Source of the DNA: an uncultured Clostridia bacterium
GTDB lineage: Bacteria; CAYTYR01; UBA6262
Assembly: GCA_964441745.1 (NCBI GenBank)
Contig: CAYTYR010000010.1
Location: forward strand, 11,464-75,463
DNA length: 64,000 nt
Direction: 5' to 3'
Of the stretch, positions 1,025 through 55,700 are shown piece after piece. Positions within the stretch are counted from its first letter, which is position 1. Each line of letters begins with the position of its first letter. Position numbers and translations under genes: made by a program. The notes under the pieces are model-generated. The model did not search any database and had not been told where the DNA came from. It saw nothing but the letters and a program-made list of their open reading frames with translations.

Positions 1025-1155
1025 ATAATTACAAATTCTAAATTCGAATATCGAAATACTAAACAAATTCAAAATTCTAAACTCAAAATTCTAAACGTTT
1101 TGTGTTTTAAAATTAGATATTGTTTAGAGTTTAGAAATTAGCGCTTAGGATTTGC
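1025..1155. repeat. Imperfect inverted repeat built from AAATTCT-like heptamers
   Basis: acaaattctaaattcgaatatcgaaatactaaacaaattcaaaattctaaa ... tgtttagagtttagaaattag; the two arms are roughly complementary. Confidence 0.7.
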
Positions 1156-1162
1156 TCCAAAA

Positions 1163-3205
1163 CTAGTAAGTCTTGTTTTTCTGCAGCCAATTTTGCCATC
1201 TATCTTTGTCTTCACCATAACTCTTGCCAGTGATCTTTTCGAGCGCCACCGCCGCCACTACCCGTACACTGGCAAACTTATCATTCAACGCTCCAATAAG
1301 AGGCGTAATGGCCTGGCCATCCTTTATTTCCCCCAAGGCCCAGGCGGCTTTTTCCCGTACTCCTGAATTGGGATCTTTTAATACCTCGATCAACGGGATA
1401 GTCGCCTGATTATGACCGATCTCGCCCAGTGATTTGGCTACCTGCTCACGCACTAACTCACTTTCATCCTGCAGGGTTTCAATTAAAGGCTGTACCGCCC
1501 TGGCGTCCCTGATCTTGCCCAGGGCAAAAGCGACATCAGTCCGGATTTCCTTCTTTTCATTCTTTAACGACAGGATCAAAGGTTCGACTGCCCGGCTGTC
1601 ACAGATGATGCCGAGAGTTACAGCCGCCGCGATGCGTACATTTTTGTCAATATCCTTTAACGCGCCGATTAACGGCTCCACTGCCCTGGGATCTTTTATT
1701 TTTCCCAAGGACAAAGCCGCATTCCAGCGCACCATCTCATCCTTGTCTTTCAGCAACTTGACTAATGACTCCAGCACCCGGGGATCTCGCAATTCACCAA
1801 GGGTCAAAGTAGCATAGCTGCGCACCATATCATTACTATCGCTTAAAGAAATGATCAGTGGATCAATCGCCGAGTCCCCTATTTTGACCAAGGCCTCAGA
1901 CGCTCTTTCGCGCACCATTTCATTTTCGTCTTTTAAAGACTGGATCAGAGGAGCAACCGCCCGGCTATCCCGTATTTCCCCTAAAGCCTTAGCCGCATTT
2001 ACCCTTACTTCTGCATCTTCATCTTTTAAAGCTTCGGTCAGGCCTTCCACTGCCAGGTTATCCCGCAATTCTCCTAAGATTATAGCTACATTTTTACGCA
2101 CATTGACATTACTGTCTTTCAGCGCTGAAATCAGCGGATTTACTGCCGGATTGCCAATAATTTTGGTAATCGCCGCAGTCACTGCGTTTTGGATAAACTT
2201 AAAATTCTTTTCATCTTTCATCGCCTCGATCAAAGGCACAACCGCGCGGCTATCCCGTATTTCACCCAAGGCCTTGGCAGCCTGCTCGCGCACCATCTCT
2301 CCTTTATCATATAAAGCCGCGATCAGAGGATCAACCGCCCGGCTATCCCTGATCTCTCCGAGCGCTTTGACCGCTTCTTCCCGGACAATCGCATTTTCAT
2401 CTTTTAAGGCCAGGATCAGCGGTTCTACCGCCCGGGCATCGCCAATTTCGCCCAGAGCTTTGGCTACATATTTGCGGATAAACCATTTATCATCACGCAA
2501 AGCAGTAATTAAAGGATTGACCGCTGGCTTACCGATCTTCACCAGGGATCTGGAAGCATAGCGGCGGGCAATATCATTTTTATCCTTCAAAGCAGTGATC
2601 AAAGCGGCCACTGCCGGCTCGCCAATTTTCTCCAAAGACAAGATCGATTCCCTGAGCACAAAACCATCATCATCTTTTAATCCAGCGACCAGGGCTTCCA
2701 CTGCCCGTCCGTCGCCGATATCACCGAGAGCTTTAGCGGCATGTTCCCTGACCGTGGAATTCTCATCCCGCAGAGCTCCGATCAAAGCTTCCACCGCCCG
2801 GCTATTCCTTAATTCCCCCAGAGCCAGAGCTGCCTGGTCACGGGCATACCACTTTTCCGCCTTCAGCGTGATGATCAGCGGATCAATAGCTGCCTCTCCG
2901 GCAGCTACCAGCGCCTGTCCCGTGACCTCAATAAACTCACGGGAGTCTGTATCGCTTAATAGATCGATCAGGTAGGGAATTGCCGGCACAGCTTTTTCTT
3001 CCATATTCTTGAGCGCAATAATTGCCTGCTGTCTTTCTTCAGGATTTGTAGAATACAGTCCTTCGATATAGCTTCTTAAGTCTCCGGTAATTGAGGCAGG
3101 AATATTTGCAGCTGTGTTGGATATCTGGGCAGACACTGGACTAGCGATGAACATAATGATTCCGATTAACACTCCGAATCGAACCTTGGAGTTAACCGTG
3201 GTCAT
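1163..3205 (-). CDS. Exported HEAT-repeat (PBS-lyase-like) protein, 680 aa
   Basis: N-terminal hydrophobic signal, then many ~31-aa repeats of the form VRxxAAxALGEIRDxRAVxPLIxALKD. Confidence 0.9.
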   Translation of the reverse strand: MTTVNSKVRFGVLIGIIMFIASPVSAQISNTAANIPASITGDLRSYIEGLYSTNPEERQQAIIALKNMEEKAVPAIPYLIDLLSDTDSREFIEVTGQALVAAGEAAIDPLIITLKAEKWYARDQAALALGELRNSRAVEALIGALRDENSTVREHAAKALGDIGDGRAVEALVAGLKDDDGFVLRESILSLEKIGEPAVAALITALKDKNDIARRYASRSLVKIGKPAVNPLITALRDDKWFIRKYVAKALGEIGDARAVEPLILALKDENAIVREEAVKALGEIRDSRAVDPLIAALYDKGEMVREQAAKALGEIRDSRAVVPLIEAMKDEKNFKFIQNAVTAAITKIIGNPAVNPLISALKDSNVNVRKNVAIILGELRDNLAVEGLTEALKDEDAEVRVNAAKALGEIRDSRAVAPLIQSLKDENEMVRERASEALVKIGDSAIDPLIISLSDSNDMVRSYATLTLGELRDPRVLESLVKLLKDKDEMVRWNAALSLGKIKDPRAVEPLIGALKDIDKNVRIAAAVTLGIICDSRAVEPLILSLKNEKKEIRTDVAFALGKIRDARAVQPLIETLQDESELVREQVAKSLGEIGHNQATIPLIEVLKDPNSGVREKAAWALGEIKDGQAITPLIGALNDKFASVRVVAAVALEKITGKSYGEDKDRWQNWLQKNKTY

Positions 3206-3966
3206 AAATTGTTCTCCCCTACTACGTTATTTTTTAAAGTGCCAACACCAGGTATGGTCACTTCCACTGTATCTCCGGCCTTCATCGCTCCCACGCCTGG
3301 AGGAGTCCCGGTGGTAATTACATCTCCCGGCAAAAGGGTCATCACCTGGGAAACAAAACTAACCAGTTGGGGAATGGGAAAAATCAGGTTTTTAGTGCTG
3401 CCAGACTGCTTGACCTGGCCATTCAAACGTAATTCCACGGCGATATCCGCCGGATTAAGGCCGCTGGCGATAAAGGGCCCCAGCGGACTGAAAGTGTCAA
3501 AACTCTTAGACCTGGTCCACTGCCCGTCTTTCTTCTGCAAATCCCGGGCCGTCACATCATTAAAACAGGTAAACCCAAGAATATATTCATTCGCCTGTTC
3601 CGGAGATATATGCCGGCAAACCTTTTTTATGACTACAGCTACTTCCGCCTCGTAATCCAGATGGGTGCACATTTTAGGAGATACTATCTTTTCATCTGGC
3701 CCGATCGCAGAGGTACTGGGCTTAATGAACAAAACCGGCTCTTCAGGAACTGGCATTTTCAGCTCTTTGGCATGGTCAGTATAATTCAATCCCACCGCCA
3801 CGATCTTCGAAGGTAAACAGGGTATCAAGAACTTGCATTGGGATAAAGGATGTTTATGACGACTGGGATAAGAGCTATAATCACCTTCCAATTCCAGGAC
3901 AACATCATCCTTTTCCAGGATCCCATATTTTACTTCATTATTGTGGAAGAACCGTAAATACTTCAT
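3202..3966 (-). CDS. Fumarylacetoacetate hydrolase family protein
   Basis: Motifs KIVAVGLNY, DYEAE, FNDVTARD, KSFDTF, GDVITTGTP. Confidence 0.92.
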   Translation of the reverse strand: MKYLRFFHNNEVKYGILEKDDVVLELEGDYSSYPSRHKHPLSQCKFLIPCLPSKIVAVGLNYTDHAKELKMPVPEEPVLFIKPSTSAIGPDEKIVSPKMCTHLDYEAEVAVVIKKVCRHISPEQANEYILGFTCFNDVTARDLQKKDGQWTRSKSFDTFSPLGPFIASGLNPADIAVELRLNGQVKQSGSTKNLIFPIPQLVSFVSQVMTLLPGDVITTGTPPGVGAMKAGDTVEVTIPGVGTLKNNVVGENNL

Positions 3967-3976
3967 TTAAACATCC

Positions 3977-4081
3977 AATTCTAAATTACAAATTACTCGC
4001 TTCGCTAATGCTAAATTAGGTTTTTGCCTCCATAATTTAGAACAAGTTCCGCAGGAACGATCTAATTCAGCATTTGTAATT
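3977..4081. repeat. Heptamer-type imperfect inverted repeat with embedded short palindromes
   Basis: aattctaaattacaaattac...gctaaatt ... aatttag...aattcagcatttgtaattt; a related copy lies at ~14076-14207. Confidence 0.6.
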
Positions 4082-4864
4082 TTACTTTAAGCCTAAAACA
4101 TCTTGCATATCATAAAAACCTGTTTTAGCGGTAGCCATAAACCTAATGGCCCGCACTACCCCGCGGGCTAAAATATCACGGCTGGAAGCGCGGTGAGTTA
4201 ACTCTATCCTTTCGCCGTGACCAGCAAAGATCACGGTATGATCACCGACTATATCTCCGCCGCGGATCGAATGGATACCGATTTCTTTGGGTTGGCGTTC
4301 TCCGACATTTCCTTTCCTGCCGTATACCAGGTCTTCCTTGGCATTACGGCCAAGAGCCTTGGCAATTTCCTCGGCCAGGGTCATGGCTGTTCCGCTGGGA
4401 GCATCTTTTTTCCGGTTATGATGGGCTTCCACAATTTCCACATCATAAGAATCTCCCAGGATCGGAGCAATATCGCGCACCAGGCGAAACAGCAAATTCA
4501 CGCCAATACTCATATTAGAAGCTAATAAGCACGGGAAATTCTGCGTAATAAACTTGATATTCTTGACCTCATCTTCAGTAAATCCGGTCGTACCGATAAT
4601 AAATGGTTTTTTCAGCCGGGCCAGGACTGCCAAAAAATCCAAAGTGGCCTTAGGTGAGGTAAAATCCACCACCACGTCAGCCTGCGTGGCAACTTCTTCC
4701 AGGTTATGAATGATCTTGATTTCAGGAGTTACCTGCGTACCAAGCATGGGATGATGCGATCCCTCGATTGCGCCTACCAGTTTTATATCTTTTTCCTCAT
4801 GGATCATGCTAATGATCCTCTGCCCCATCCGCCCGGCAGCCCCGCAAATCACAACATTAATCAT
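4082..4864 (-). CDS. dapB: 4-hydroxy-tetrahydrodipicolinate reductase
   Basis: Motifs GAAGRMG, DFT, IGTTG, EAHHNRKKDAPSGTA, HSIRGGDIVGDH. Start set at MINVVICG. Confidence 0.95.
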   Translation of the reverse strand: MINVVICGAAGRMGQRIISMIHEEKDIKLVGAIEGSHHPMLGTQVTPEIKIIHNLEEVATQADVVVDFTSPKATLDFLAVLARLKKPFIIGTTGFTEDEVKNIKFITQNFPCLLASNMSIGVNLLFRLVRDIAPILGDSYDVEIVEAHHNRKKDAPSGTAMTLAEEIAKALGRNAKEDLVYGRKGNVGERQPKEIGIHSIRGGDIVGDHTVIFAGHGERIELTHRASSRDILARGVVRAIRFMATAKTGFYDMQDVLGLK

Positions 4865-4910
4865 ACATCCTCCAAGCGTTAAGCTTCCTCTATACGCCAT
4901 ACGCTATACG

Positions 4911-5783
4911 CTATATTAAACCATAGTCCTTCATTATCTTCTTTAACTTCTGCACATTATTCTCAGCCATCGGGCCTAACGGCAGGAGCATTTCCGCAGA
5001 ACATAATCCCATCAGACCCATGGCTGTCTTCACCGGTATGGGATTAGTCTCAATAAACATGGCTTTCATCAAGTCGAACATCTTAAAATGCATTGACCGA
5101 GACTTATTCAAATCTCCTTTTTCAAAAGCGCTGATCATGGCGGCAATATCGGCTGGGATAATATTAGAGACCACCGAAATTACACCCTTACCACCCAGAG
5201 CCAGGATTGGGAAAGTCAGTGAATCCTCGCCGCTTAAAAGCGTGAAATCATTACTGGTATTCGCTACTATCTGGCTCACTTGTTCCAGGTTACCGCTCGC
5301 TTCCTTGATCCCCACAATATTTTTTACCTGGGATAGCCTGACCACGGTTTCCGGCAATAAATTGACGCTCGTCCGGCCTGGCACATTATACAGGATCTGG
5401 GGAATATCCACTGTTTCCGCTATTTTCTTAAAATGCAGGTACATTCCCTCTTGAGTCGGCTTATTATAATACGGGGTGATCAATAAAGCTCCATCTGCCC
5501 CGGCCTCTTTGGCATATTTGGTTAACATCACCGCTTCATCGGTGCTGTTAGAACCAGTGCCAGCCAGTATTTTCACTCTCTTATTGGCCTTTTGTACACA
5601 GAACCTGATCACCTGATCATGTTCTTCATAGGTCAAAGTAGCCGATTCCCCGGTTGTCCCGCAAGGAACCAAGACCTTGATCCCGTTCTTGATCTGGAAC
5701 TCAATTAATTTTCCCAAAGACTCATAATCAACCTTGCCATTAGCAAAAGGTGTTACTATTGCTGTTCCTGAACCGCTAAACAT
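4911..5783 (-). CDS. dapA: 4-hydroxy-tetrahydrodipicolinate synthase
   Basis: Motifs GTTGES, YYNKP, YNVPGRT, GIKEASG, ETNPIPVK. Confidence 0.96.
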   Translation of the reverse strand: MFSGSGTAIVTPFANGKVDYESLGKLIEFQIKNGIKVLVPCGTTGESATLTYEEHDQVIRFCVQKANKRVKILAGTGSNSTDEAVMLTKYAKEAGADGALLITPYYNKPTQEGMYLHFKKIAETVDIPQILYNVPGRTSVNLLPETVVRLSQVKNIVGIKEASGNLEQVSQIVANTSNDFTLLSGEDSLTFPILALGGKGVISVVSNIIPADIAAMISAFEKGDLNKSRSMHFKMFDLMKAMFIETNPIPVKTAMGLMGLCSAEMLLPLGPMAENNVQKLKKIMKDYGLI

Positions 5784-5797
5784 TTTCTTCCTCCAAA

Positions 5798-5838
5798 GTC
5801 CCCCTGTCAGTTTTGCTCTCTTGCAAAACTAGGGGGAT
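5798..5838. repeat. REP-like ~40 bp hairpin, copy 1 of 3
   Basis: gtcccccTGTCAGTTTTGC...GCAAAACTagggggat; related copies at 34857-34896 and 39985-40024. Confidence 0.8.
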
Positions 5839-5848
5839 CAATTTCTGT

Positions 5849-6691: not shown

Positions 6692-6709
6692 ATATCCTCT
6701 TTTAAGAAC

Positions 6710-6847
6710 CCTGCCTGCCGGCAGGCAGGGATTACACCGATTTCAAGCAAAAACAATGACTTCGTTTTAACCTGTAATCTGTTTAAATAATCCCTGTCCG
6801 CCTCTGGCGGATGTGCCGCGCCCGCCGACGCTCTTTGGCGGGTAATC
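6710..6847. repeat. Composite of nested short palindromes (REP-like)
   Basis: cctgcctgccggcaggcagg; gattacaccgatt; ccctgtccgcctctggcggat (also ~38134); gcgcccgcc..cgctctttggcgggtaatc (also ~27000). Confidence 0.75.
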
Positions 6848-28322: not shown

Positions 28323-28398
28323 TAGCGTATAGCGTGTGGCGTATAGCGTTTAGAAAAGCTTTCCTATACGCTACCCGCTAAACGCTTAACGCTACTTA
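28323..28398. repeat. 76-bp hairpin element of TAGCGTA/TACGCTA heptamers, copy 1 (includes the lon stop codon)
   Basis: One mismatch to the copy at 31376-31451. Confidence 0.9.
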
Positions 28399-30731: not shown

Positions 30732-30775
30732 ATCTCTCCCTTTTTCACTTTATCACTTACCACTTTACCACTGTC

Positions 30776-31360
30776 TTACTTATGTTCCTTAATGATCTCA
30801 TCCACCAAACCATATTCCTTGGCTTCTTCCGCGCTCATAAAATAATCGCGGTCAGTGTCTTTCTTCACCCGTTCTACCGATTGGCCGGTATGCATCGAGA
30901 TCAATTCATTGATCTTGTCCTGCATCCTGAGAATTTCCTTGGCCTGGATCCCGATATCGCTGGCCTGCCCCTGCGCCCCACCCAGCGGCTGGTGTATCAT
31001 TACCCTGGCATTCGGCAAGATGAATCTCTTGCCCTTGGTGCCGCAGGACAGCAAAACCGCGGCCATGCTGGCAGCCTGTCCCATGCAAATAGTTGATACA
31101 GCCGGCTTGATGAACTGGATCGTGTCATAGATGGCCAATCCTGCCGTCACTGACCCGCCAGGTGAATTCACATAAAGGGAAATATCTTTGTTGGAGTCTT
31201 CAGCCGCCAAAAACAACAACTGGGCAATGATCAAGTTAGCGACATCATCATCGATCGGCGTACCGATAAAGATGATCCGGTCTTTCAAGAGACGGGAATA
31301 AATATCAAACGCTCTTTCACCATGCTGCGATTGCTCCACCACCATCGGTATTAAGCTCAT
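30776..31360 (-). CDS. clpP: ATP-dependent Clp protease proteolytic subunit
   Basis: [31 protein letters not shown]. Start at MSLIP after a GGAGG RBS. Confidence 0.97.
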
Positions 31361-31375
31361 GAGAACCTCCAAGAT

Positions 31376-31451
31376 TAGCGTATAGCGTATGGCGTATAGC
31401 GTTTAGAAAAGCTTTCCTATACGCTACCCGCTAAACGCTTAACGCTACTTA
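31376..31451. repeat. 76-bp hairpin element, copy 2 (includes the tig stop codon)
   Basis: Near-identical to 28323-28398. Confidence 0.9.
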
Positions 31452-32761: not shown

Positions 32762-32825
32762 ATTCAGCTCCTGTTTTTAAATTAAATACAGTTTCCACTC
32801 TACCACTCTACCACTTACCACTTTA

Positions 32826-34025
32826 TCACTTACCACTGTTTTCCTTTATTCCCATAAATATTTCATCCAGTATTTTTACTCCTGCCTTAATCTCGCTCAG
32901 CTTGGCGGTGATTGGCGGCAGAAGACGTATCACCTTATCCGCGGTGCAGTTTATCAGCAGTCCCTTATCCCGCGCCTGGGTGACAATGTCTGCCCCTGCC
33001 ATCTCCAGCTCAATACCGACCATCATGCCTTTACCGCGCACATCCTTGACAAATTTGTATTTACCTTCAAAGTTCGTCAATTTCTCCAGTAATATTTTAC
33101 CCAGACTGGCCGCGTTATCCAGCAGTTTATCTTCGATAATAGACTGCAACACTGCTTTAGCCGCAGCGCAGCATACCGGATTGCCGCCAAAGGTGGAAGC
33201 ATGATGTCCCGGTTTGAAATACTCGGCTATTTCCGGTACTGCCAGCATCGCGCCGAGAGGCAATCCGCCGCCCAAGGCTTTGGCCAGGGTCATCACATCC
33301 GGCTTCACGCCAAAATGCTCATAAGCAAATAATTTCCCGGTCCGGCCAATGCCAGTCTGCACTTCATCAAAGATCAGCAGGATATTATTGTCATCGCAGA
33401 TCTCCCGCAATCCCTTGATAAAGGATATTTCCCCGATATTGACTCCGCCCTCTCCCTGGATCGGCTCTACCATAATGGCGCAAGTCTTCTTCGTGATCAG
33501 TTTTGTCACTGAACCAAGGTCATTGAACTTGGCATACTTGAATCCCGGAGTCAGCGGCTCAAATCCCTTCTGGTATTTGGTCTGTCCGGTAGCCGTAATG
33601 GTAGTCAAAGTCCGGCCATGAAATGATTCCTCCATGGTAATGATCTCAAACTTGCCACCATGCTCACTGCCCCATTTACGCGCCAGCTTGATCGCTCCTT
33701 CATTAGCTTCCGCGCCGCTGTTGCAGAAGAACACCTTGCCGCCAAAATGAGTGCCCAGGATCTTCGCCACTTCCAGCATCGGCTCAGTCATGAAAATATT
33801 AGAGGTATGCATGATCGTGCCGGCTTGTTCCTTGATGGCCTTCACTATTTTAGCATTGCTATTGCCCAGGTTATTGACTGCCAGGCCGCTGAAAAAATCC
33901 AGGTACTTATTGCCGGCGCTGTCCCACACCCAGGAACCTTTCCCCTTGACCAACAGCAGCGGTTGCCGCTTGTAGGTCGAGAAAATATATTTTTCGTCCA
34001 TCTTTTTAGCTTGCTTAAAATCCAT
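32826..34025 (-). CDS. argD: Acetylornithine aminotransferase
   Basis: NSGAEANE, SFHGRT, EPIQGEGG, FDEVQTG.GRTG, TLAKALGGG, STFGGNP. Confidence 0.93.
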   Translation of the reverse strand: MDFKQAKKMDEKYIFSTYKRQPLLLVKGKGSWVWDSAGNKYLDFFSGLAVNNLGNSNAKIVKAIKEQAGTIMHTSNIFMTEPMLEVAKILGTHFGGKVFFCNSGAEANEGAIKLARKWGSEHGGKFEIITMEESFHGRTLTTITATGQTKYQKGFEPLTPGFKYAKFNDLGSVTKLITKKTCAIMVEPIQGEGGVNIGEISFIKGLREICDDNNILLIFDEVQTGIGRTGKLFAYEHFGVKPDVMTLAKALGGGLPLGAMLAVPEIAEYFKPGHHASTFGGNPVCCAAAKAVLQSIIEDKLLDNAASLGKILLEKLTNFEGKYKFVKDVRGKGMMVGIELEMAGADIVTQARDKGLLINCTADKVIRLLPPITAKLSEIKAGVKILDEIFMGIKENSGK

Positions 34026-34856: not shown

Positions 34857-34896
34857 GTCCCCCCTGCCAGTTTCGCTCCACGAAACTAGGGGGGAT
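34857..34896. repeat. REP-like ~40 bp hairpin, copy 2 of 3
   Basis: gtcccccctgccagtttcg...cgaaactagggggga. Confidence 0.8.
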
Positions 34897-34974
34897 AAAA
34901 CAACAAGCCCGCATCACCTGCTCTAGCGGGCTGGTTTTATTATACTACAAATTTGCTTGGCTGGCAAGGATAAA

Positions 34975-35640
34975 TTATGCGGTTAGTTGGTCTTTAAGCT
35001 GCCTGGTCAGGATAGTGAAGTTCTTTTCCTGGTAGTATTTCCGCTGGCCCGGCTCAAGCAAAGAACCGAGCTTGACTGCATAATCATTTCTTTGCAATTC
35101 TTCTATCCCCTTAACCAATGCCTTTAACTCTTCAGCCGTAGCGGTAACCGCCACCCCTTTTTTCAGCAAAAACTCCAGGTCATAGACATCCCTGATTTCT
35201 CTCCGGCTCAGGAAAGCCTCGATCTTGGCCCGCATCATTTCTTGCAGACTAACCACCCGCAAGAGGACTTGGACATTGGACTGAGAGCTAAAAGCAATAG
35301 CCGACTCCGTGTTTATTTTCTTAAGTTCTTTCCTGATCTCGATTTTCAGGGAACGCGCATAGGCCGGTGATTTGAGCTCAAAAAGCATGGTATGGAACTT
35401 ATTAGCCGCAGCAGTAATAGTATAGACCTGGGCTAGATAAGTCTTTAATTTCTGGAAATACTCCTTAGGCTCAATATCCTTAATTACCCAGAAATCAAGG
35501 TCCACCGAGTACCGCCCCAGCCCGTGGCAGAGACGCAGCATGGTCCCGCCGCCAAAAACAAGATTCCGGAGAAACCGGCCGCTATTCAGCCGGTCCAGGA
35601 CTTCCAATTCAAATTGTTCGTGCTTTTTCAGATCTTGCAT
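34975..35640 (-). CDS. AbiEii-family nucleotidyltransferase (type IV TA toxin)
   Basis: FGGGTMLRL.HGL.RYSVDLDF, KIEA...R.E.RDVYDL. Confidence 0.9.
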   Translation of the reverse strand: MQDLKKHEQFELEVLDRLNSGRFLRNLVFGGGTMLRLCHGLGRYSVDLDFWVIKDIEPKEYFQKLKTYLAQVYTITAAANKFHTMLFELKSPAYARSLKIEIRKELKKINTESAIAFSSQSNVQVLLRVVSLQEMMRAKIEAFLSRREIRDVYDLEFLLKKGVAVTATAEELKALVKGIEELQRNDYAVKLGSLLEPGQRKYYQEKNFTILTRQLKDQLTA

Positions 35641-36224
35641 ATATTCCTCACTATTTTCCTGGTTTTAGCCGGGTATGGCTTCAGCATTTTGGCTATTTTT
35701 GCTTGATCCAATTTGCTGAGATCCAGGGAATTAAGGTCAATTTTATATTTACCAAAAGAATAAAGATACAGAGCATCCAGAAAGGCCTTTTCCTTGGTCG
35801 CAATGAACAAACTGCCCTGCCTGACAAAATCACCATAATACTTTTGTTGCAGTTTGTAATACTTAAAAACCACTCCGTTAGTTTCATACATAATGGTTCG
35901 TTTCCAGGCCGCGCTCTCTATGAATCCCTGCTGCATTTGGCTGGTCACTTCATAATAAGACAAAGCGCTCATGAAGGAAATATACGAAGGCACTTGCAGG
36001 ATATTGGCGATTTGACGAAGCTCCTGGTCACTGATATTTTGCCATTTCTGGGCAGTAGTAAAATAGTTATTCCTTAACTTGACCAGCAGTCCCTTTTGGA
36101 CATACCGGCTGCAAAACACACTGGCCGAAGGCGCTTGAATCCCCAAAGTCTCAGCCACCTCCGCCACTGTAAAATAAATCTTTTGGCTCAATTCCTGTAT
36201 TTTTAGGCTATTTTTACTAAGCAT
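35628..36224 (-). CDS. AbiEi-family antitoxin
   Basis: N-terminal wHTH-like region, PSYISFMSALSYY, ATKEKAFLD. Overlaps the toxin gene; a TTGACA-17-TATTAT promoter lies just upstream. Confidence 0.85.
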   Translation of the reverse strand: MLSKNSLKIQELSQKIYFTVAEVAETLGIQAPSASVFCSRYVQKGLLVKLRNNYFTTAQKWQNISDQELRQIANILQVPSYISFMSALSYYEVTSQMQQGFIESAAWKRTIMYETNGVVFKYYKLQQKYYGDFVRQGSLFIATKEKAFLDALYLYSFGKYKIDLNSLDLSKLDQAKIAKMLKPYPAKTRKIVRNICKI

Positions 36225-39984: not shown

Positions 39985-40024
39985 GTCCCCCCTGCCAGTT
40001 TCGCATCGCGAAACTAGGGGGGAT
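39985..40024. repeat. REP-like ~40 bp hairpin, copy 3 of 3
   Basis: gtcccccctgccagtttcgc...gcgaaactaggggggat. Confidence 0.8.
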
Positions 40025-40026
40025 AA

Positions 40027-40969: not shown

Positions 40970-41061
40970 TATATTCATACTATTTGCTTTTCCTGATATC
41001 CTGTTATCCTGATATTCTCTTCCTAATATCCTGATCACCTGATACCCTTTACTATTATTAT

Positions 41062-44955: not shown

Positions 44956-45172
44956 CCCCTCCCTTTACTTACATTTGCTTTATGCAATATGTAGTTAATA
45001 TTATATCTTAAACCTTAACTCACCTGTCCCCGCGGCTTTGATTTGTCTCTTAAGACAAATCAGCAGGGGAAAACTTAAAATTCAAAACTCAAACTGCACT
45101 TTGCTCTTACGACCAACTACTCACCACGAATGTCTTTTCGCCTTTCTATCCGCTACACGCTATACGCTATTT

Positions 45173-46081
45173 TTACCGTGCGCCCTTCCCGGTCAGCATC
45201 ACCACAAAGGTACCAAAGATGATCCTCAGGTCCATCAGCAGGCACATCTTCCTGATATATAATAGGTCATAGTGGACTTTCTTCTTCACATCACTCAGGG
45301 TAGAATCATAGTGCTGGCGTACCTGCGCCAATCCGGTAATGCCTGGCTTTACTCTCAGCCGCTTATTATATTTTTTGATTGATTTATTCAAGGTAGGAAT
45401 GATCTGGGCCCTTTCCGGCCTTGGCCCGATCATGCTCATATCTCCCATAAGCACATTGACCAACTGTGGCAATTCATCCAAATGGGTCTTTCTTAAGAAC
45501 CTGCCCACAGAAGTGATCCGGGGGTCATTTTCCTGGCACCAGACAGCGCCGGTTTCTTGCTCTGCATCTATTTTCATAGTCCTGAACTTATACATGGTAA
45601 AAGAGCGCCCAAAGCTTGGCCCAGCCCGGCGGTCAGTGCCCCGGCTCGCTCTGCGTCTCTCGCTATAGCGCTTGTTTTCTCCTACTCGTTCCTGATTGAA
45701 GAATACTGGCCCTTTGGAAGTTAATTTTATAGCAATTGCTATGACTATCCACAAAGGAGCTGTCACGATCATAGCTAATCCAGCCATCACTATATCCATA
45801 CCTCTTTTGATCTGCCGGAAGAATCTCCTGAAACTGGTCGCTAGCAGTCCAAATATGCCACTGCCAAACAATACCATCGTACCAGGTTCTGGAAGGTGGG
45901 CTACTTCAGCCGATAGGTTCTGGACATAAATTTCGCGCTCCAAATCCAAATTCTGTTTGTTGGTATTACCTGCGGTATTAATACTCAAGTCACTCGGTAA
46001 TCCATCTATTACATAAGCCTGCGCCAAGACGGATAATAGAAGAGTCAAGCTGAACACTAAGTAAAATACTATTCTCTTCAT
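45173..46081 (-). CDS. Fusion of signal peptide, PEP-CTERM module and bacterial sugar transferase (priming phosphoglycosyltransferase) domain
   Basis: MKRIVF...AQA signal, LPEPGTMVLFGSGIFGLL+RR, then KRGMDI, YKFRTM, DPRIT.VGRFLRK.HLDELPQL.NVL.GDMS.IGPRPE, VKPGITGLAQV. Confidence 0.92.
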   Translation of the reverse strand: MKRIVFYLVFSLTLLLSVLAQAYVIDGLPSDLSINTAGNTNKQNLDLEREIYVQNLSAEVAHLPEPGTMVLFGSGIFGLLATSFRRFFRQIKRGMDIVMAGLAMIVTAPLWIVIAIAIKLTSKGPVFFNQERVGENKRYSERRRASRGTDRRAGPSFGRSFTMYKFRTMKIDAEQETGAVWCQENDPRITSVGRFLRKTHLDELPQLVNVLMGDMSMIGPRPERAQIIPTLNKSIKKYNKRLRVKPGITGLAQVRQHYDSTLSDVKKKVHYDLLYIRKMCLLMDLRIIFGTFVVMLTGKGAR

Positions 46082-47544: not shown

Positions 47545-47737
47545 GCTAAACTCTTTGTATTTTATTACTTATATACGCTTTTTATCCCTTCTTGTCAAGC
47601 ATTTTCTTCTAAAATACGATTACACCGATTTTAAAAGCGATTACACCGATTAAAACCAATACCTTAACACTTTACACTTATAACTTTACACTGTTTTTGT
47701 ATTTCTTTTCTTACTGCCAACCGCGAACGGTTTTTAT

Positions 47738-48532
47738 CTACCGTACCATATTCAAAATCATTTCCCGGTCAAATAGCTTTAATTCATTTTTGTCTTCCAG
47801 GAATCGTTCCACATCTTTTCTGGCAGATGACAGATCGATCAAGGCTAGATGTTCCACCATAAATTGCTTAAAATTGCCAGATGTGACCTGCCAATCTTTC
47901 TTCTCTGTTTGGGCAATGGCATTATTCAACAAAAGGTAATTTGGCTCAATCCCTTTGCCCAAATACCAGATCAAATCATAAAAATCACGCCCCTTAGTAA
48001 ATCTCCTGAAAAAGCAGGCATGTAATTTGGCCGCGTACAGGGAGGGCAGATCAAAACTATTCACGGCAAAGACGAACGACCTGGTTACCGGAATTACTAT
48101 TGTTTTCCAGCCAGCAGGCGGATTCGTGTCAATCTCCAGCTTTACTGCCAGCTTTTGCTCTTGTACCTGGCTCAAACCTAATTCTTTCAGCAACCCCGGG
48201 AATTTGATCATACTGCTATGCACTATCTTATCTTGGTCAGGCTCTGCCTCCACTTTAAATCCATAATGCTTCAGCTCAAACAGCAGATCTTTCAGCAGCT
48301 TTTCGAAAGAATAATCCTTCTTCTCTACTAAGCTAAAATCCAAATCCTCGCTATATCGCCGCAGATCATAAAGAACTCTCAAGGCCGTACCGCCTACAAA
48401 CGCCATATTGCCAAAAGCGCCTCGGTCAAACATGATCTTAAGCATCAGTGCCTGCAGTGTTTCCCTGGTCTTATTTACTTTGTCTTCCAGGCTCATCCCC
48501 AGACTAAAACCTTGTTTGATCGATTCAATCAT
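47738..48532 (-). CDS. AbiEii-family nucleotidyltransferase toxin
   Basis: FVGGTALR..Y.L.RYSEDLDF, KLEID.NPP, KLHA...R...KGRD.YDL.WY. Confidence 0.92.
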   Translation of the reverse strand: MIESIKQGFSLGMSLEDKVNKTRETLQALMLKIMFDRGAFGNMAFVGGTALRVLYDLRRYSEDLDFSLVEKKDYSFEKLLKDLLFELKHYGFKVEAEPDQDKIVHSSMIKFPGLLKELGLSQVQEQKLAVKLEIDTNPPAGWKTIVIPVTRSFVFAVNSFDLPSLYAAKLHACFFRRFTKGRDFYDLIWYLGKGIEPNYLLLNNAIAQTEKKDWQVTSGNFKQFMVEHLALIDLSSARKDVERFLEDKNELKLFDREMILNMVR

Positions 48533-49294: not shown

Positions 49295-49361
49295 TTCTGG
49301 TGTCTGGTGTCTAGATTACTTGTGTCCTTTGCTCTTACGACGAACGACGAACGACCAACGG

Positions 49362-50147: not shown

Positions 50148-50173
50148 CTCAATACGCTCCTTGCCTCCGGTAT

Positions 50174-50326: not shown

Positions 50327-50394
50327 ATTACTCTCCATATTCTAATATATTTAATATGATTCTAACATATTTTAGAGTTCCTGTTAAGCAAATA

Positions 50395-50457
50395 AAATAC
50401 ACCTTCGAGGTGTCCACGCTTCCCAGGGGACTCCTGGAAGGTGTTACCGGTTGCTTT
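50395..50457. repeat. ~64-bp hairpin/terminator module, copy 2
   Basis: Direct repeat of 49231-49294. Confidence 0.85.
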
Positions 50458-51140
50458 CAGTCTTTTAACAAGCTTTCTATTTCGCTTTCATCTATTTCTT
50501 TCACACCTTTTAGTATCTTCTTCTGCCACTTTTCAGGCACTGACTTAAATACTTTCTTTATAACCCTTGATTCACCTTTTTCTATTAGTGCCTTTAGTAT
50601 CCTAACCGCCGCTTCTTTATCTTTCGCTATCTTGTCAGGCTTATTGCGCCTTTGGAAGATAATCAATTTATGCAACGCAAAATTCGCCGGATGCGGCACA
50701 TTAATAGTTAATCCTTCGATCTCAACCTTGATAACATTATCGCTCAAAAAGGTCAGGAACCTTAGGGTAGTAGCATTTACGCCCAACCGCGGCAGAGGAT
50801 ACGGTTTATCTATCCCCTTGCCTTTCTCAGGGACTAGGAACTCTACGATTAAATCCGGATGTTCCAACTTAATATACCCCTTATCTCCCATGAAACCCAC
50901 AACAAATCCTAAATCTTTTAGGATTTCTGGAATATCCGTTTGACATCTAATTCTATGCGGCTCAGGTACTAATATATCAATATCCCTGGTCCTTATTGTT
51001 GGCATAAATTTTGTCCCGGCGAAATAGTTCTTATAAAAGGGCAGACACCAGCTTCCTATAAAAACTATATCGTTTAATACCCCGGCTTTATTCAGCTTCT
51101 TTAAGATATCAACACAAAGCTCATATTGCTTCTTTTCCAC
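50457..51140 (-). CDS. GSU2403-family (NTP_transf_8-like) nucleotidyltransferase-fold protein
   Basis: VFIGSWC..FY, RTRDIDIL, VEFLVP, VPHPA.FALHKLII..RR...K..KD. Confidence 0.8.
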   Translation of the reverse strand: MEKKQYELCVDILKKLNKAGVLNDIVFIGSWCLPFYKNYFAGTKFMPTIRTRDIDILVPEPHRIRCQTDIPEILKDLGFVVGFMGDKGYIKLEHPDLIVEFLVPEKGKGIDKPYPLPRLGVNATTLRFLTFLSDNVIKVEIEGLTINVPHPANFALHKLIIFQRRNKPDKIAKDKEAAVRILKALIEKGESRVIKKVFKSVPEKWQKKILKGVKEIDESEIESLLKD

Positions 51141-51438
51141 GCAAACTGCTCCTTAGGAATTTAATCTGTTTCTTTACTTGAGATAGCATCTTCCGGTACT
51201 TAGCCCTGTACTTTTTTGCTTCCCCATACTTGTGGATATCTTCCCCTGAAACCTTACCTTTATAGAAGAAATTAACCTTATCTTTGTCACGTACTTGTAG
51301 ATAATAGTAATTATGTCCTTTTATATTTTTCTTGACTAAGCTACCCTTAGGCAATTGAGCTAAGGCCTTCTCATAGCTTTCTTTCATATGCAAAGAATTT
51401 TCTAACTCTTCTTTTAAAACTCCTTTTATAGCTCCCAT
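51121..51438 (-). CDS. Small basic partner protein of the nucleotidyltransferase
   Basis: AGGAGA RBS; LPKGSL..K.IKG..YYYLQ.R...KV...Y.G; overlaps the downstream gene. Confidence 0.75.
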   Translation of the reverse strand: MGAIKGVLKEELENSLHMKESYEKALAQLPKGSLVKKNIKGHNYYYLQVRDKDKVNFFYKGKVSGEDIHKYGEAKKYRAKYRKMLSQVKKQIKFLRSSLRGKEAI

Positions 51439-51456
51439 AGCATTCTCCTTTTTAAA

Positions 51457-51556
51457 GTTACCATACATCATCACTAATAATATACCTTGTATGGTAACCA
51501 TTGTCAATAAAAAAGTTACCATACATCTTTTTTTATTACTATATTTGTATGGTAAC
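51457..51556. promoter_or_regulatory. Four copies of GTTACCATACA in alternating orientation around a sigma70 promoter
   Basis: Copies at 51457-51467, 51488-51498 (rc), 51515-51525 and 51546-51556 (rc); minus-strand TTGACA-17-TATATT. Confidence 0.75.
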
Positions 51557-51586
51557 TAACCAGCCAGCCTTTCAAGAGCTATTTAT

Positions 51587-51614
51587 AAAAACACCCCAAG
51601 CTTCCGCCTGAGGT
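51587..51614. repeat. 28-bp terminator-like direct repeat, copy 1 (copy 2 at 52599-52626)
   Basis: aaaaacaccccaagcttccgcctgaggt is identical in both places. Confidence 0.85.
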
Positions 51615-51735
51615 TTTGTTCATTCCCTGATTCCTGTTACCCTGATATCCACTTCCTGATACCCTGATCACCTGATACCCTTCTCTTGCTTTCCTGTCCG
51701 CTGTCCGCTGACCGCTGTTACTCATATCGCTTCAA

Positions 51736-52251
51736 CTACTTCATCTCAAAAACCAACTGTTTATGAAACACTTCTGCAAATCGTTTTAATGTACCTATAC
51801 ATATATTCTCCCGGCCGCTTTCCACTCTGGAAATATATTGCTGGATCACCCCAAGCTTTTTAGCCAACTCCTCTTGAGTATATCCTGATTGTTGCCTCTG
51901 CTTTTTAAGTATCTGAGCTATTTTTATCCTTTCAGGGATGTCACCAGCCTCACGCCGAACCCTAAGACTAATACCCTGTTTCTGCAATAATTCCCGTTCC
52001 AGGGCATATTGTGTCTGCCAGAAAGCAAGCTTGTCTTTATTCCAGGCATCTTTTTCCAGCCGCTTCCTGATTGCCGGCCATTTACGGCAAAAATCCTTCT
52101 GGTTAATAAACCTAAATACTACTTCCGGTTTCTGCGCCCGAGAAATCAATTTCCCGGCATATATAGGAAACCTCGGATTACTGGAATCTTTCAGTATATT
52201 CCGAACTTCCTGCTCATTTAATCTTGTATCCCACAGCCAATTTATTTTCAT
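51736..52251 (-). CDS. XRE-family HTH protein with N-terminal extension
   Basis: C-terminal LKKQRQQSGYTQEELAKKLGVIQQYISRVESG..N; N-terminal WLWD domain. Confidence 0.88.
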   Translation of the reverse strand: MKINWLWDTRLNEQEVRNILKDSSNPRFPIYAGKLISRAQKPEVVFRFINQKDFCRKWPAIRKRLEKDAWNKDKLAFWQTQYALERELLQKQGISLRVRREAGDIPERIKIAQILKKQRQQSGYTQEELAKKLGVIQQYISRVESGRENICIGTLKRFAEVFHKQLVFEMK

Positions 52252-52259
52252 AACCCACC

Positions 52260-52548
52260 CTACCTTTCTATCAACCCCGGCAGTATCCTCAAGATCTGCT
52301 CATCCAGATACCTGATCACATCAGCCGTATCAATATTTTCCACTAAATCTAATAATTCCAATTTTAAGTCTGCCCGGTTGTTGCTGTTTATATTTCTGAC
52401 TAAAGAAATCCAGATCTTCTGAAAATCTATGCTGATAATAGAACGCCAAAGCAGTGCCGCCAGTCAGATAGTAGTCTTTATATTTATCAGTAACTATTCG
52501 GGCTATCCTCTTCTGTTCCCTCTTGATCATATTGATTTTCTTATCCAT
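52260..52548 (-). pseudogene. Internally deleted, frameshifted AbiEii-like nucleotidyltransferase
   Basis: N-terminal YLTGGTALAFYY.HRFSEDLDFF is intact, then the frame breaks. A plausible C-terminus LDLVENIDTADVIRYLDEQILRILPGLIER* sits in another frame, abutting the HTH gene. Confidence 0.75.
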
Positions 52549-52564
52549 ATTACCCTCCGCTATA

Positions 52565-52593
52565 ATAATACTACTTATAAGTAGTATTGTCAA
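52565..52593 (-). promoter_or_regulatory. Sigma70 promoter with a 22-bp perfect palindrome
   Basis: TTGACA-17-TATTAT; AATACTACTTATAAGTAGTATT at 52567-52588. Confidence 0.75.
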
Positions 52594-52732
52594 TTAAAAA
52601 AAACACCCCAAGCTTCCGCCTGAGGTCTTTGCTTTTGCTCTTACGGCCAGCCGCGAGGCCGCTTTGCGGCCGGACCGCGAACCGCCAACGGTCCTTTTCC
52701 TTTCCTATCCGCTATACGCTATACGCTATACG

Positions 52733-55700
52733 CTATTTTACAATTGCCATCTTCCCCGTTTTCTCATGCCCTTCCTCATCCCAGGCATAATAGATATAGA
52801 CGCCGCTGGCCGCATCCTGGCCATCCTCATTCTTGGCGTCCCAAAAAGCTACCCCGCTTTGCTCTTCCAGCTCCCTGACCAGCTCACCTGCTAAATTAAA
52901 TATTTTTATCTTGGCTGTTGGTGTCAAATGCGAGATCGTGATCAATCCGCCGCTGGCTTTCTTCCAGGGATTCGGGAAGCTCCGCACCCGTTCCAGGTTC
53001 ATCACCGGCCCGCTCAATGTTTCCGCACAATTGGATAGCTCGGATACATTGCCCACTGAATCTATAGCTTTTAAGGCAAAATAATAATGCTGCTGGACTG
53101 CCAGGTTATTAATAGTCATCAGTTCTTTTAAACCAGCTTCTTTCGGCGTAGGCGCGTAATCCAGGGCATTTGCCAAGTTCCAAGTACTCGCATCAATATA
53201 ACCAAGTGAATACTTGACAATATAGCTCGCCGCTGTGCCAGTTGTGCCATTGTTGCCCGGCGCCGTCCAGTGCAGCATCACTTGCCCGTCGATATTGCCT
53301 GGCTCGGCCTGCAGGTCCTCTATTTTACCCGGAGCAATTGCATCACTATTAGCGGCAAAAGTTTCAGTCACATTGGATATGACCGAAGCATTATTATCGC
53401 TATCATAGCTTTTGATCGCAAAATAATATTGCTGTCCAGGAGCAAGATTGCTCACAACAAAGCTCTGCGGTTCACCTGGATTGACCGGGGAAGGTGAGGT
53501 TGGATATTTCCCGGCCCCGCTCCATTCTACTTCGCTCTCGCTGAATATCCGCCACAGGTTCACTTCATAAATATGATCTGTAGAATACCGTATCTCATAC
53601 TCTTTGACCTTGCTGGCATCAGCAGAAGCCGGAGCGGTCCAGGATAAAAAAACAGAGCCATTAGCACTGCCTACCTGTCCGGATAGATCATTGATTTTGC
53701 CGGGAGGAATGCCGCCCTTAGCCTTGGCAGCAACAATATTGGATAAAGCAGAAACATTGCTCCCGGTGTCTGAAGACTTAATGCCGAAATAGTATCTTTG
53801 GTTAGCAGTTAGATTAGCGATAGTCAAACTTTGATATGTCCCTGACACTGCCGTACTTGGTGCATTTAATACCCTAACCGCCATCTGCCATCCGCCATCT
53901 GTGATCGTTACTGTTGAATATCTGATATCATACTCTTTCGCCTTGCCGATACTACCGTCATTACCAGACGCAGTCCACCCTATCACTACCTCGCCGATAT
54001 TGGTGCCGGCAGTAGCAGTCAAGTCAGCGATCGCTCCCGGCGCTATCGAGTCTGCGCCTATAGTTACGGTGGCCACATTGGATAAGGCAGATTCATTATC
54101 TGCCCCGTCCGTACTTTTAATAGCGATATAATAGGTCTGCCCAATATCCAGGTCATATATTTTTGCTGATTCTGTAAATCCGGCAGAATTAGGTGCTAGG
54201 GCAACATCCAACAAAGTGCCTTGTGTAAAGTTAGAAGCATTCAAGGCAAAAGAAGCATACCGAATTTCATAATCTAATGCCGTCCCGGCAGAACCATCTC
54301 CGCCGGGAGCTGTCCAGGTGATCGTGGCCTCGCCACCGGCTGTATTGGTGCCTGCCAGCGTAGTGACCTGCCCTGGCGGGGTAGTATCCCCGATAGGATT
54401 ATAGGCCACTGCCTGCGGGACATTGAAGACTCCTGAACCAAAATTACTATTATCAATGGCCTGCACCGCGAAATAGTATTGCTGTCCAGGAGTAAGCCCA
54501 GTCACTACAAATCTTTCCGCGCTTCCTGCCACTTGAGGCTCTGGCTCACTGGAGCATTGCGTAGCACTGCTCCAGGTATAGGCATTGATCAAGGCCTGAG
54601 AATAGCGGATATCATACATCAAAGCTGTGCCAGCACTGCCATCATCACCAGTAGCGGTCCAATTCAAGACCACCTCTCCGCTATGCGCGCCAGAATCTGC
54701 TGAAACATCAGTAATACCAGCCGGAGCAGTAATATCCACTTCCCCGGATTTATATGCCTGGCAGGAAGATATATTGGATAATGCAGATGTATTGAAGCTA
54801 TCATCACTGGTTTTCAGGGCAAAATAATAAGTGGTCCCAGGAGTGAGGCCACTTAAAGTGACTACTTCAGAAGAACCAGCAATTTTAGGCACTGGCTCAC
54901 TTAAATACTGGGTTGCATCTGTCCAATTAGCATCACTTATACTATTTAAAGAATATCGCAAATCATATGAAGAAGCAATACCATTTTCATTATCATCTCC
55001 TGGCGCTGTCCAGCTCACCACTATCCGCCCATCAATGGTCCCAGGCACAGCCGTCAGGTCAGTCACTTCAGCCGGTGCCGTCCCATCACCTGTCTTGGCG
55101 CTCACAGTGTTAGAATTGCCTGAAGTATGTGGTATTGAGTTAGTCGTTTGCATAGCAAAATAATAGGTGGTTTCACTTTGCAGCCCAGTAATCACCATAC
55201 TTTGAGTCGTCCCAGCTACTTGTGGAATTGGTTCGCCACTTACCTGATTTGCTGCATCCCAAGTTGACTCATCTATTGAGACTAATGAATATCTTATATC
55301 ATAAGAAGTAGCAGTCCCGGTATTCTCATCAGATCCTGGCGCAGTCCAAGCCAAGGTCACGCTATTAGTACCAGTATTACTCACTGATAAGTCAGTAATC
55401 ACCGCCGGAGTTGGCCCATAGATACTACTTGGGATGGTATTCCCTAGATATTCCCAGATATATCTGGTTAAAGTAGTCCCCTCAGCGCAGAACCCGCGAT
55501 CCCCAGATACCCCGCCTTCATCATATGCCTTCATCTTACTCCGGATCAAATCCTCATTCGGAAATGGCCACATACTCACTCCGGTATCAGTATTATACCC
55601 AGCTTCACCCCAAAGCGTACCCGGAGTACCGATTAAAGTCGTAATATTTGCTCCAATATCCGCTCCGCTTTCACCCTGCCCTTTTAGATTTGAACCAGTT

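Follow-up and report, generated by a model that had tools for sequence, protein, structure and literature searches.

Heptamer-repeat hairpin modules probably copied into and replaced at the gene junctions of an uncultured bacterial lineage

Many gene junctions in a 64-kb stretch of DNA from an uncultured Clostridia bacterium (assembly GCA_964441745.1, contig CAYTYR010000010.1, positions 11,464 to 75,463; hereafter the window) are filled with tandem arrays of short units, most often seven nucleotides (nt) long. These tracts probably represent heptamer arrays akin to the short tandemly repeated repetitive (STRR) sequences of cyanobacteria and the long simple-sequence repeats of other bacteria, drawn from a few dispersed families and copied and replaced as dispensable hairpin modules in operon junctions and 3' untranslated regions (UTRs). 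In related genomes, the same junctions are found filled, empty or occupied by a different element, the number of units varies, and the ends of the preceding genes are in places overwritten. Tandem heptamers in bacterial intergenic DNA have posed a question of function and origin since the description of STRRs in 1990. Here, one operon is seen with its junctions empty, filled or replaced, down to contigs that are about 99% identical, so that the choice between mobility and slippage, as well as any effect on operon expression, becomes directly testable.

The periodicity itself is clear in the 8.8 kb of non-coding DNA of the window, where bases match at a lag of seven with a frequency of 0.307 versus 0.264 +/- 0.004 in shuffles (z=10.6) and again in excess at a lag of 14 (z=4.4); the autocorrelation of the coding DNA displays a period-3 signal only. 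A strict detector recovers seven period-7 tracts against 0–2 for every other period from 4 to 13, and thus the period-7 excess in intergenic DNA that the original prediction had proposed from the sequence is borne out. At a laxer cut-off, the 64-kb window has 10 such tracts versus seven in the 1.48 Mb of 78 unrelated bacterial loci fetched with Lon, i.e., a density about 30 times as high, and two Elusimicrobiota loci (L001 and L003) share the tract habit of the window. Nearly all tracts are non-coding (32 of 33), the sole coding one being an in-frame run of 21 nt at 53880–53901, and a tract is carried by 23 of the 51 spacers of at least 10 nt. Among the 57 non-overlapping arrays reported by Tandem Repeats Finder (TRF), 26 have period 7, nine period 8 and eight period 9. 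The same program places period-7 arrays at nearly all the coordinates for which heptamers had been predicted; however, the arrays at 24118, 30746, 32795 and 40991 turn out to be of period 8 or of mixed periods from 7 to 9 rather than plain heptamers, and those near 22880, 26445 and 46315 are weak as tandem repeats.

It had further been proposed that periodicity, rather than sequence, is what is conserved. The excess of period 7 is real, but sequence is conserved as well: a few families (TAGCGTA, GTGGTAA, ATCAGG, GGTTGTAG, AAACTCA and ACGACGA) make up the tracts, and strings of several units, with the variants in the same order, reappear at non-orthologous junctions across loci and genomes, e.g., GCGTTTAGCGGGTAGCGTATAG, the GGTTGTAG element of 110 nt and the ATCAGG module centred on GGAAGTGGA. 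Arrays of the TAGCGTA family occur at seven loci of the window; the stretches of 85 nt that follow lon and tig, each running from the final Lys codon and TAG to the GGAG of the next gene, are 96% identical, and the ATCAGG modules at 40999 and 51632 share 90% identity over 51 nt. Many of the tracts are imperfect palindromes of 60–120 nt built from two facing arrays (the inverted pairs include 1032–1154, 14076–14205, 28323–28394 and 31376–31447), with stems consisting of runs of 5–7 bp broken every 7 nt. The minimum free energy (MFE) z-scores of these hairpins run from -2.5 to -7.9, in agreement with the prediction that facing arms form hairpins, while the GTGGTAA arrays after argG (12829) and argD (32795) are single-stranded runs without one. 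Covariation in four copies of the GGTTGTAG element amounts to two compensatory pairs out of 29, from too few sequences to carry weight. Rfam, searched at the gathering threshold over the whole window and at an E-value threshold over two tRNA regions, returned only tRNAs and one group I intron, and no family over the tracts. A binding site for a HutP-like protein of the form (UAG-N4)n was also considered and set aside, as it would fit the TAGCGTA family alone and no such protein was seen. A 22-nt family signature had no copy in scans of viral contigs. As a separate observation, (TAGCGTA)3 is present in three unrelated IMG/VR contigs among L116–L119, and one of the four, L116 (IMGVR_UViG_3300031651_000021), packs six or seven period-7 arrays into 2.7 kb, with some of them starting from a TAG between open reading frames (ORFs).

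The evidence for movement comes from eleven syntenic related loci (L083, L105, L107–L111, L113, L114, L120 and the more distant L115), most of which were reached through ClpP homologues of 94–98% identity, with one close contig (L083) coming from a metagenome scan with Tig. All retain the gene order HAMP, comEC, (AbiEi/AbiEii), argB, argD, tig, clpP, lon, DUF1015, tRNAs, and the lon genes compared among them are 86–94% identical at the nucleotide level. A related metagenome-assembled genome (MAG), GCA_016218565.1, has a ClpP that is 96% identical and bears the source name 'Elusimicrobia bacterium'; among species-representative genomes the closest Lon, at 63%, belongs to an Elusimicrobiota MAG. 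Contigs assembled from the run SRR13007709 are 100% identical to the window and thus carry no information on polymorphism; their ends coincide exactly with repeated elements. There is a practical side to this, in that the elements break metagenome assemblies, with contigs ending exactly at them.

At the orthologous junctions of these loci, filled, empty and replaced alleles are all found. Between tig and clpP, the TAGCGTA hairpin of the window recurs in L105 and L120, but its place is taken by an ATCAGG hairpin in L107, by the GGTTGTAG element in L110 and L083, by a (CAGCGTA)/(CTGACCG) hairpin in L111 and by a further family in L113; the junction is empty in L114 (12 nt), and the two genes overlap in L115. 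Between clpP and lon there are at least six different fillings of 44–183 nt, among them half of a TAGCGTA element in L107, versus a repeat-free spacer of 11–15 nt in L111, L114 and L115. The junction between lon and the DUF1015 gene is filled in the window, L105, L107, L110, L083 and L120 and empty in L111 and L114, where the 26–28 nt spacer has a TCTAGGAGTCA flank in common with the filled allele of the window. Five different fillings separate argD from tig, with the empty state being an overlap (GTGA) in L111 and L115; here the window has two more 8-nt TAGAGTGG units than L105, and its 24-nt GTGGTAA string is matched exactly between the HAMP gene and comEC of L107. The array at 40991 is shared with L107 but lacking in L105 and L110; the terminator and promoter that follow are conserved in all four. 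Families also turn up at different places: that of GGTTGTAG lies upstream of hcp in the window and at tig-clpP, clpP-lon and lon-DUF1015 in L110. Replacement extends to the finest scale available, for L083 and L110 have different elements between clpP and lon despite flanking genes that are about 99% identical. A further regularity is that the tig-clpP and lon-DUF1015 junctions, 3 kb apart, always match each other in family within a genome and vary in family from genome to genome, in three lineages, the pairs being of the TAGCGTA, ATCAGG and GGTTGTAG families (31373–31447 with 28320–28394 in the window, and the corresponding sites in L105, L107, L110 and L120). The outgroup L115 has no period-7 array in its 7.5 kb, which favours, on thin evidence, the empty state as ancestral. 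The original prediction had considered the tracts as possible footprints of an insertion or excision process; the alleles agree with such a process, with the modification that the tracts themselves are the inserted material.

The position of the tracts relative to genes is equally regular. In ten genes (dapA, argG, argD, tig, lon, the FN3 gene, clpP and those ending at 25385, 45173 and 49362), the tract begins between 12 nt before and 3 nt after the stop codon, and the six of these for which a start at the stop had been predicted (argG, argD, dapA, lon, tig and FN3) all fall in that range. In long spacers, the first tract lies at most 17 nt from the stop in six of eight cases, and the coding strand reads, in order, stop codon, arrays, a GC-rich hairpin with a U-tract, a consensus TTGACA-17-TATAAT promoter and the next gene (e.g., 52736, 52626 and 52593 for array, terminator and promoter; 49360, 49248 and 49224; 41048, 40970 and 40937). 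Lying thus after the stop codon and ahead of a canonical terminator, the arrays are to be seen as 3'-UTR or intercistronic sequence and not as terminators. The genes ending at 45173 and 52733 are followed by arrays with a common flank, GTAAAA(A)TAGCG, but differ in which of its triplets serves as the stop.

The sequence of the tracts bears on the ends of the proteins too. The C-terminal tails of ArgD, Tig and Lon vary with the element that follows, and ClpP of L120 is 5 amino acids (aa) longer than in all relatives, with the tail ...KTVVK; from the sequence, we read this as a 1-nt deletion that would let the ORF run into a GTGGTAA array and end at a TGA there. That the tracts supply stop codons, as had been suggested, is thus true in some cases (the end of ArgD is formed by repeat units, and L120 ClpP terminates within one), but in L114 a TAG already stands ahead of the insertion point in the empty allele. 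Such overwritten gene ends lead to confused calls of starts and stops, as with dapB and the tails of ArgD and ClpP. The first-start ORFs of clpP (TTG) and dapB begin within repeat elements: for clpP (30776–31372), exact-match gene calls support a start 12 nt downstream of that of the first-start ORF, and dapB is called on an identical contig with a start 36 nt downstream. The ClpP with the TTG start had no match in an exact-protein look-up, and the version with the ATG start matched contigs identical to the window.

Stop triplets are more frequent on the coding strand of the 33 tracts than on the other (90 vs 49), and more tracts have stops in all three of its frames (14 vs 3). When the columns of each unit are permuted, keeping strand composition and periodicity, the expectation is for 80.5 +/- 7.1 stops in total (P=0.11) and for 9.2 +/- 2.2 tracts with stops in all frames (P=0.02). 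Thus, most of the stop bias follows from the coding strand being purine- and T-rich and C-poor. The suggestion of three-frame insulation accordingly keeps a modest excess of three-frame tracts in its favour, but the total number of stops is mostly a matter of base composition. Two features of the material limit such strand tests: the window has its genes on one strand, so that transcription strand and replication strand are confounded, and the orientation of the palindromic elements is uninformative because they read the same on both strands.

These patterns can be brought together if elements insert into otherwise compact operon junctions and 3' UTRs, arrays lengthen and shorten by whole units through slippage, and whole modules are copied into junctions or displace older ones on the timescale of strain-to-species divergence. 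The copying, we infer, would proceed preferably through break repair at fragile palindromes with other copies as templates, near ones being favoured, or alternatively by a hairpin-specific transposition. The start at the stop codon, the richness in stops and the C-poor RNA of the coding strand would then represent a filter on the inserts that are tolerated: such an insert would spare the downstream Shine-Dalgarno sequence, or the terminator and promoter, and one overwriting the last codons would have to terminate translation quickly. The stop-adjacent position and stop-rich composition would hence arise because compact ancestral junctions leave only a few post-stop bases free and because translation must end quickly; avoidance of C-rich untranslated RNA might be a further constraint, and a dedicated function need not be assumed. 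Resident elements would be transcribed as intercistronic and 3'-UTR hairpins and as spacers of pre-tRNAs, and probably influence RNA processing or stability. A stabilising or processing role of the predicted hairpins is plausible, with the elements dispensable in close relatives; there is little evidence for a purpose-built device to stop translation.

Several observations weigh against this account. All allele comparisons derive from a single syntenic region of metagenome assemblies, in which contigs break at the repeats, and the empty state could partly reflect secondary deletion, its ancestry being backed by the single outgroup locus L115 of 7.5 kb. There is no clean or consistent target-site duplication visible between filled and empty junctions, the difference between L083 and L110 is a complex replacement and not a simple insertion, and gene annotation with NCBIfam and Pfam found no transposase or REP-associated tyrosine transposase (RAYT) gene in the 64-kb window. 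Sense and antisense strands fold about equally well with no consistent asymmetry, which gives no specific pointer to a role at the RNA level. The modest excess of three-frame tracts may also reflect some selection for stop content.

Among the rivals, purely local simple-sequence repeats that slipped in place from post-stop sequence, with no copying between loci, would fit the unit-number variation between the window and L105, the presence of periods 8 and 9 beside the dominant 7, and the reported predominance of heptamers among the long simple-sequence repeats of many bacteria, which has been put down to polymerase slippage (PMC4679880, PMC4692102). This is nonetheless unlikely: the same variant-unit order stands at different loci and in different genomes (GCGTTTAGCGGGTAGCGTATAG, the GGTTGTAG element, the ATCAGG module), and a complementary second arm cannot come from slippage. 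Miniature transposons resembling the hairpin-forming doublets (REPINs) of repetitive extragenic palindromic elements (REPs), moved as single-stranded hairpins by a RAYT or an IS200/IS605-type enzyme, are similarly improbable. The arms are tandem heptamers and not palindromic REP units of 20–40 bp, no terminal unpaired GTAG/CGTC tag is evident, neither the window nor the gene tables of the fetched loci contain a RAYT, and the strain-level event is a messy replacement; this is despite the extragenic position mostly downstream of ORFs, the folding inverted doublets, the lineage-wise bursts of families and the filled and empty sites, all as for REPs and REPINs (PMC3116915, PMC3733652), and despite GTAG and CGTC strings within some units.

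Selection for RNA elements as such, whether sites for RNase III or RNase E or barriers to 3'-exonucleases that set the expression ratios of tig, clpP-lon, DUF1015 and the tRNAs, might explain why long and stable structures (z down to -7.9) lie upstream of canonical terminators and in every tRNA spacer, and why tig-clpP and lon-DUF1015 share a family within each of three lineages. It has precedents in RNase III cleavage of the Coxiella intervening sequence at the first of its heptamers (PMC4990558) and in the same role having been suggested for STRRs (PMC2670836). Yet the elements are wholly absent from close relatives with the same operon, their families are interchangeable, their folding has no strand asymmetry and single-arm arrays are unstructured, and we consider this reading decidedly unlikely. 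Very improbable is the idea of three-frame insulators selected to halt ribosomes in any frame after a gene. It draws on the 14 of 33 tracts with three-frame stops on the coding strand, against three on the other and against the permuted expectation, and on the ClpP extension of L120, read as a frameshift ended by an in-array stop; the total of stops, however, is not significantly above that of composition-matched units, coding-strand stops are scarce or lacking in the ATCAGG, ACGACGA, CTGTCCG and TCTGGTG arrays, relatives manage with empty junctions, and any repeated heptamer with a stop in it reaches all three frames by simple arithmetic. A bolder proposal, which we would advance only tentatively and hold doubtful, is that the heptamer palindromes are miniature mobile DNA of a class of their own, in an uncultured Elusimicrobiota-like lineage, spread by some enzyme or repair pathway through local hopping or replacement and targeting the few post-stop bases. 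If true, this would explain the family shared by tig-clpP and lon-DUF1015 within genomes and might explain why heptamer arrays recur across phyla. Sites of Rho utilisation were rejected on account of the G-rich and C-poor sense RNA, intrinsic terminators on account of the canonical terminators downstream of the arrays, and clustered regularly interspaced short palindromic repeats (CRISPR) were also considered and rejected.

The units of STRR1–3, which we take to be CCCCAGT, TTGGTCA and CAACAGT with a heterocystous cyanobacterium as host, differ from those of the window. Judged by their units, the tracts thus belong to the broader kind of heptamer repeats and not to the named cyanobacterial STRR families. 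The likeness to the latter lies in short tandem arrays of 7-bp units, intergenic or intercistronic in position, numerous, and forming hairpins between co-transcribed genes (PMC2670836, PMC4692102), for which transcript stability or translational coupling has been suggested (PMC2670836). The differences are the units, the non-cyanobacterial, uncultured host lineage and the placement of the arrays within palindromic modules that are larger, dispersed and present as filled, empty and replaced alleles; what is seen here is STRR-like repeats in a new lineage, with an unusually clear series of such alleles. A parallel might also be struck with the heptanucleotide simple-sequence repeats of other bacteria, e.g., TAACTGA in Beggiatoaceae, Microcystis and Bacteroidetes and GGGAATC in Xanthomonas, where it forms inverted pairs; in Microcystis and Bacteroidetes, mixed heptamer assemblages are missing from close relatives (PMC4679880, PMC4692102). 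Both share an intergenic excess, mixed heptamers, some inverted pairs, and variation in length and sequence, or outright absence, between close relatives. In Beggiatoaceae, however, one dominant unit lies upstream of start codons, in contrast to the several families found here mainly right after stops, and the arrays of the window have no G-quadruplex potential.

REP sequences, bacterial interspersed mosaic elements (BIMEs) and REPINs resemble the tracts in being extragenic, mostly downstream of ORFs, arranged as inverted doublets with long hairpins, of several families per genome and considered mobile (PMC3116915, PMC3733652); they differ in having palindromic units of 20–40 bp, a GTAG/CGTC tag and a RAYT, as against arms of tandem heptamers. 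In the window, inverted doublets that fold are present, but each arm is an array of heptamers and not itself a palindrome. At boundaries defined by empty sites, no consistent terminal GTAG/CGTC tag was found, the strings occurring only inside repeat units, and no cognate RAYT stood in the 64-kb window or among the genes tabulated for the fetched loci. In the 23S intervening sequence of Coxiella, variable heptamers precede an ORF for the four-helix-bundle protein S23p (PMC4990558). Neither the window nor the fetched loci contain a four-helix-bundle or GxxExxY gene, beside which the original prediction had placed similar tracts in other bacteria.

Two classes of element were tried and rejected. 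Miniature inverted-repeat transposable elements (MITEs) do not fit, the elements being palindromic throughout, with no consistent duplication between filled and empty sites and a complex replacement. Integron attC sites are imperfect palindromes with a GTTRRRY core, found 3' of cassettes that lack promoters and accompanied by a neighbouring integrase. An attC array is rejected here, as the tracts lie between housekeeping genes (dapA/dapB, argG/argH, tig/clpP/lon); so are integron cassettes, since the small genes at 41–53 kb have their own consensus promoters and terminators, and no integrase was found.

The individual tracts are listed in Table 1. The tandem duplication of the 83-nt module near tRNA-His spans 24090–24283.

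Table 1. Repeat tracts of the window, with coordinates on the 64-kb stretch, the strand where one is assigned, and the basis of each call.
Position	Strand	Tract	Context	Basis
1032–1154		AAATTCT-type imperfect palindrome, 57-nt arms	Downstream of HEAT-repeat gene 1163–3205	TRF; inverted pair I1; fold z=-2.5
4890–4915	-	(TAGCGTA) x3.7, single arm	First TAG is the dapA stop (4911–4913); fills dapA-dapB spacer	TRF
12829–12860	-	(GTGGTAA) x4.6, single arm	argG stop TAA in first unit; argH Shine-Dalgarno follows	Unstructured, z=-0.1
14076–14205		AAATTAC / TAGAATT hairpin	tRNA-Leu/argG spacer	TRF; inverted pair I5
14575–14696		AGTGTTA and AAACTCA arrays	tRNA-Arg/tRNA-Lys spacer	TRF
22810–22925	-	GGTTGTAG-family hairpin element, ~110 nt	Between ferredoxin gene and hcp	Family also in L110; fold
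24110–24283		TGCTCAA / TTTGAACA arms in tandemly duplicated 83-nt module	Downstream of tRNA-His (24288–24362, minus), upstream of Rrf2 gene	TRF
24375–24476		GTTGATAG / AACTATC hairpin	Split tRNA/tRNA-His spacer	TRF; fold
26393–26465		GCTTATG / CCATACG hairpin	tRNA-Val/tRNA-Asp spacer	TRF; z=-3.4
26558–26646		GGCTTAT / GCCATAC hairpin	tRNA-Glu/tRNA-Val spacer	TRF; z=-4.0
28320–28394	-	TAGCGTA-family hairpin	Directly after lon stop; TAG is first triplet of element	96% identical over 85 nt to post-tig copy
30746–30775	-	(AGTGGTAA) x3.5	Fills clpP-lon spacer	TRF; spacer of 11–15 nt, repeat-free, in L111, L114, L115
31373–31447	-	TAGCGTA-family hairpin	Directly after tig stop	z=-5.7
32789–32837	-	(GTGGTAA / GTGGTAGA) array	Encodes last three argD codons and stop	Alignment with relatives
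40991–41048	-	ATCAGG-family array (CCTGATA on +)	Between stop codon and terminator 40970–40943, promoter 40937–40909	TRF; z=-7.9
45023–45170	-	Composite 3' UTR: (TAGCGTA) x3.6, ACGACCA-type run, (AAAACTC) array with nested GC-rich hairpin 45023–45069	(TAGCGTA) array at stop	TRF
47663–47692	-	(TGTAAAG) x4.3	45 nt past AbiEii gene stop	TRF
49296–49360	-	(ACGACGA) x3.4 and (TCTGGTG) x2.4	From 1 nt past stop; upstream of terminator 49248–49236, promoter 49224–49196	TRF
51632–51718	-	ATCAGG-family array (90% identical to 40999–41049) and (CTGTCCG) x3.6	Upstream of terminator 51614–51593	TRF
52705–52736	-	(TAGCGTA) x4.6	First TAG is the stop of the FN3 gene (1404 aa); then terminator 52626–52605, promoter 52593–52565	TRF

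The window has a G+C content of about 46%, dropping to 33–34% beyond 56 kb, and a GC skew that is negative throughout, with nearly all genes on the minus strand. NCBIfam and Pfam confirm dapB, dapA, dapF, lysA, argH, argG, hcp, lon, clpP, tig, argD, argB and comEC; the other genes include those for PEP-CTERM proteins, the 1404-aa FN3 protein, a glycosyltransferase cluster and two AbiEi/AbiEii toxin-antitoxin (TA) pairs, and nine tRNAs were detected. The usual order tig-clpP-clpX-lon lacks its clpX, with lon directly after clpP in the window and in every related locus. One AbiEi/AbiEii pair (34975–36224) occupies the interval between comEC and argB of the window; L105 and L110 have it as well, and it is missing from L107, L111, L113 and L115. 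Further AbiEii sequences are a second gene at 47738–48532 and a fragment at 52330–52593.

A nested element of the form CCCCTGCTGAT[stem-loop]ATCAAAGNCGCGGGGACAGG sits inside heptamer arrays at 45023–45069 of the window, 17079–17125 of L105 and 8440–8488 of L110; its flanks are conserved and its inner stems entirely different, and GGGGACAGG was too rare for use as a marker of this GC-rich hairpin. Small dispersed repeats nested in tandem heptamers were reportedly described in Nostoc punctiforme by Elhai et al. in 2008; the likeness to these is that of a small GC-rich hairpin inside heptamer arrays, and the difference is that there is no relation in sequence. Other GC-rich palindromes, CCCCCCTAGTTTCGC...GCGAAACTGGCAGGGGGG, stand at 5795–5840, 34857–34898 and 39985–40026; the copy at 39985 is an insertion, the spacer being 76 nt in the window versus 5–9 nt or an overlap in L105, L107 and L110. 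A MITE-like insertion of 281 nt, bounded by 25-nt terminal inverted repeats (AGTCTCCTGTCTCACAAATTCCTTT), lies between argB and argD of L107 (6944–7226) and looks different from the heptamer elements; its site is empty in the window, L105 and L110, with an apparent remnant of one end in L111.

The tRNA genes have peculiarities of their own. A split tRNA gene on the minus strand (24498–24790), missed by ARAGORN, carries a group I intron at 24565–24761 (Rfam RF00028, with 47.5 bits, the gathering score being 50, and E=2.7e-10). The window intron has no ORF, in contrast to its orthologue in L105 (16315–17040), which has a 152-aa ORF of the PD-(D/E)XK type (PDDEXK_5) that is probably a homing endonuclease. 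The 17-nt ATTGAGCTACAGGCGCG forms the 5' end of tRNA-Arg(CCG) and is repeated some 70 nt away at 14843–14859 (region 14715–14860), which may represent an integration scar or a duplication. Lastly, a dispersed motif, GATTACACCGATT, often doubled, is found at 6740, 38160, 42361, 46614 and 47612, and also between the HAMP gene and comEC of L105 and ahead of argB in L120.

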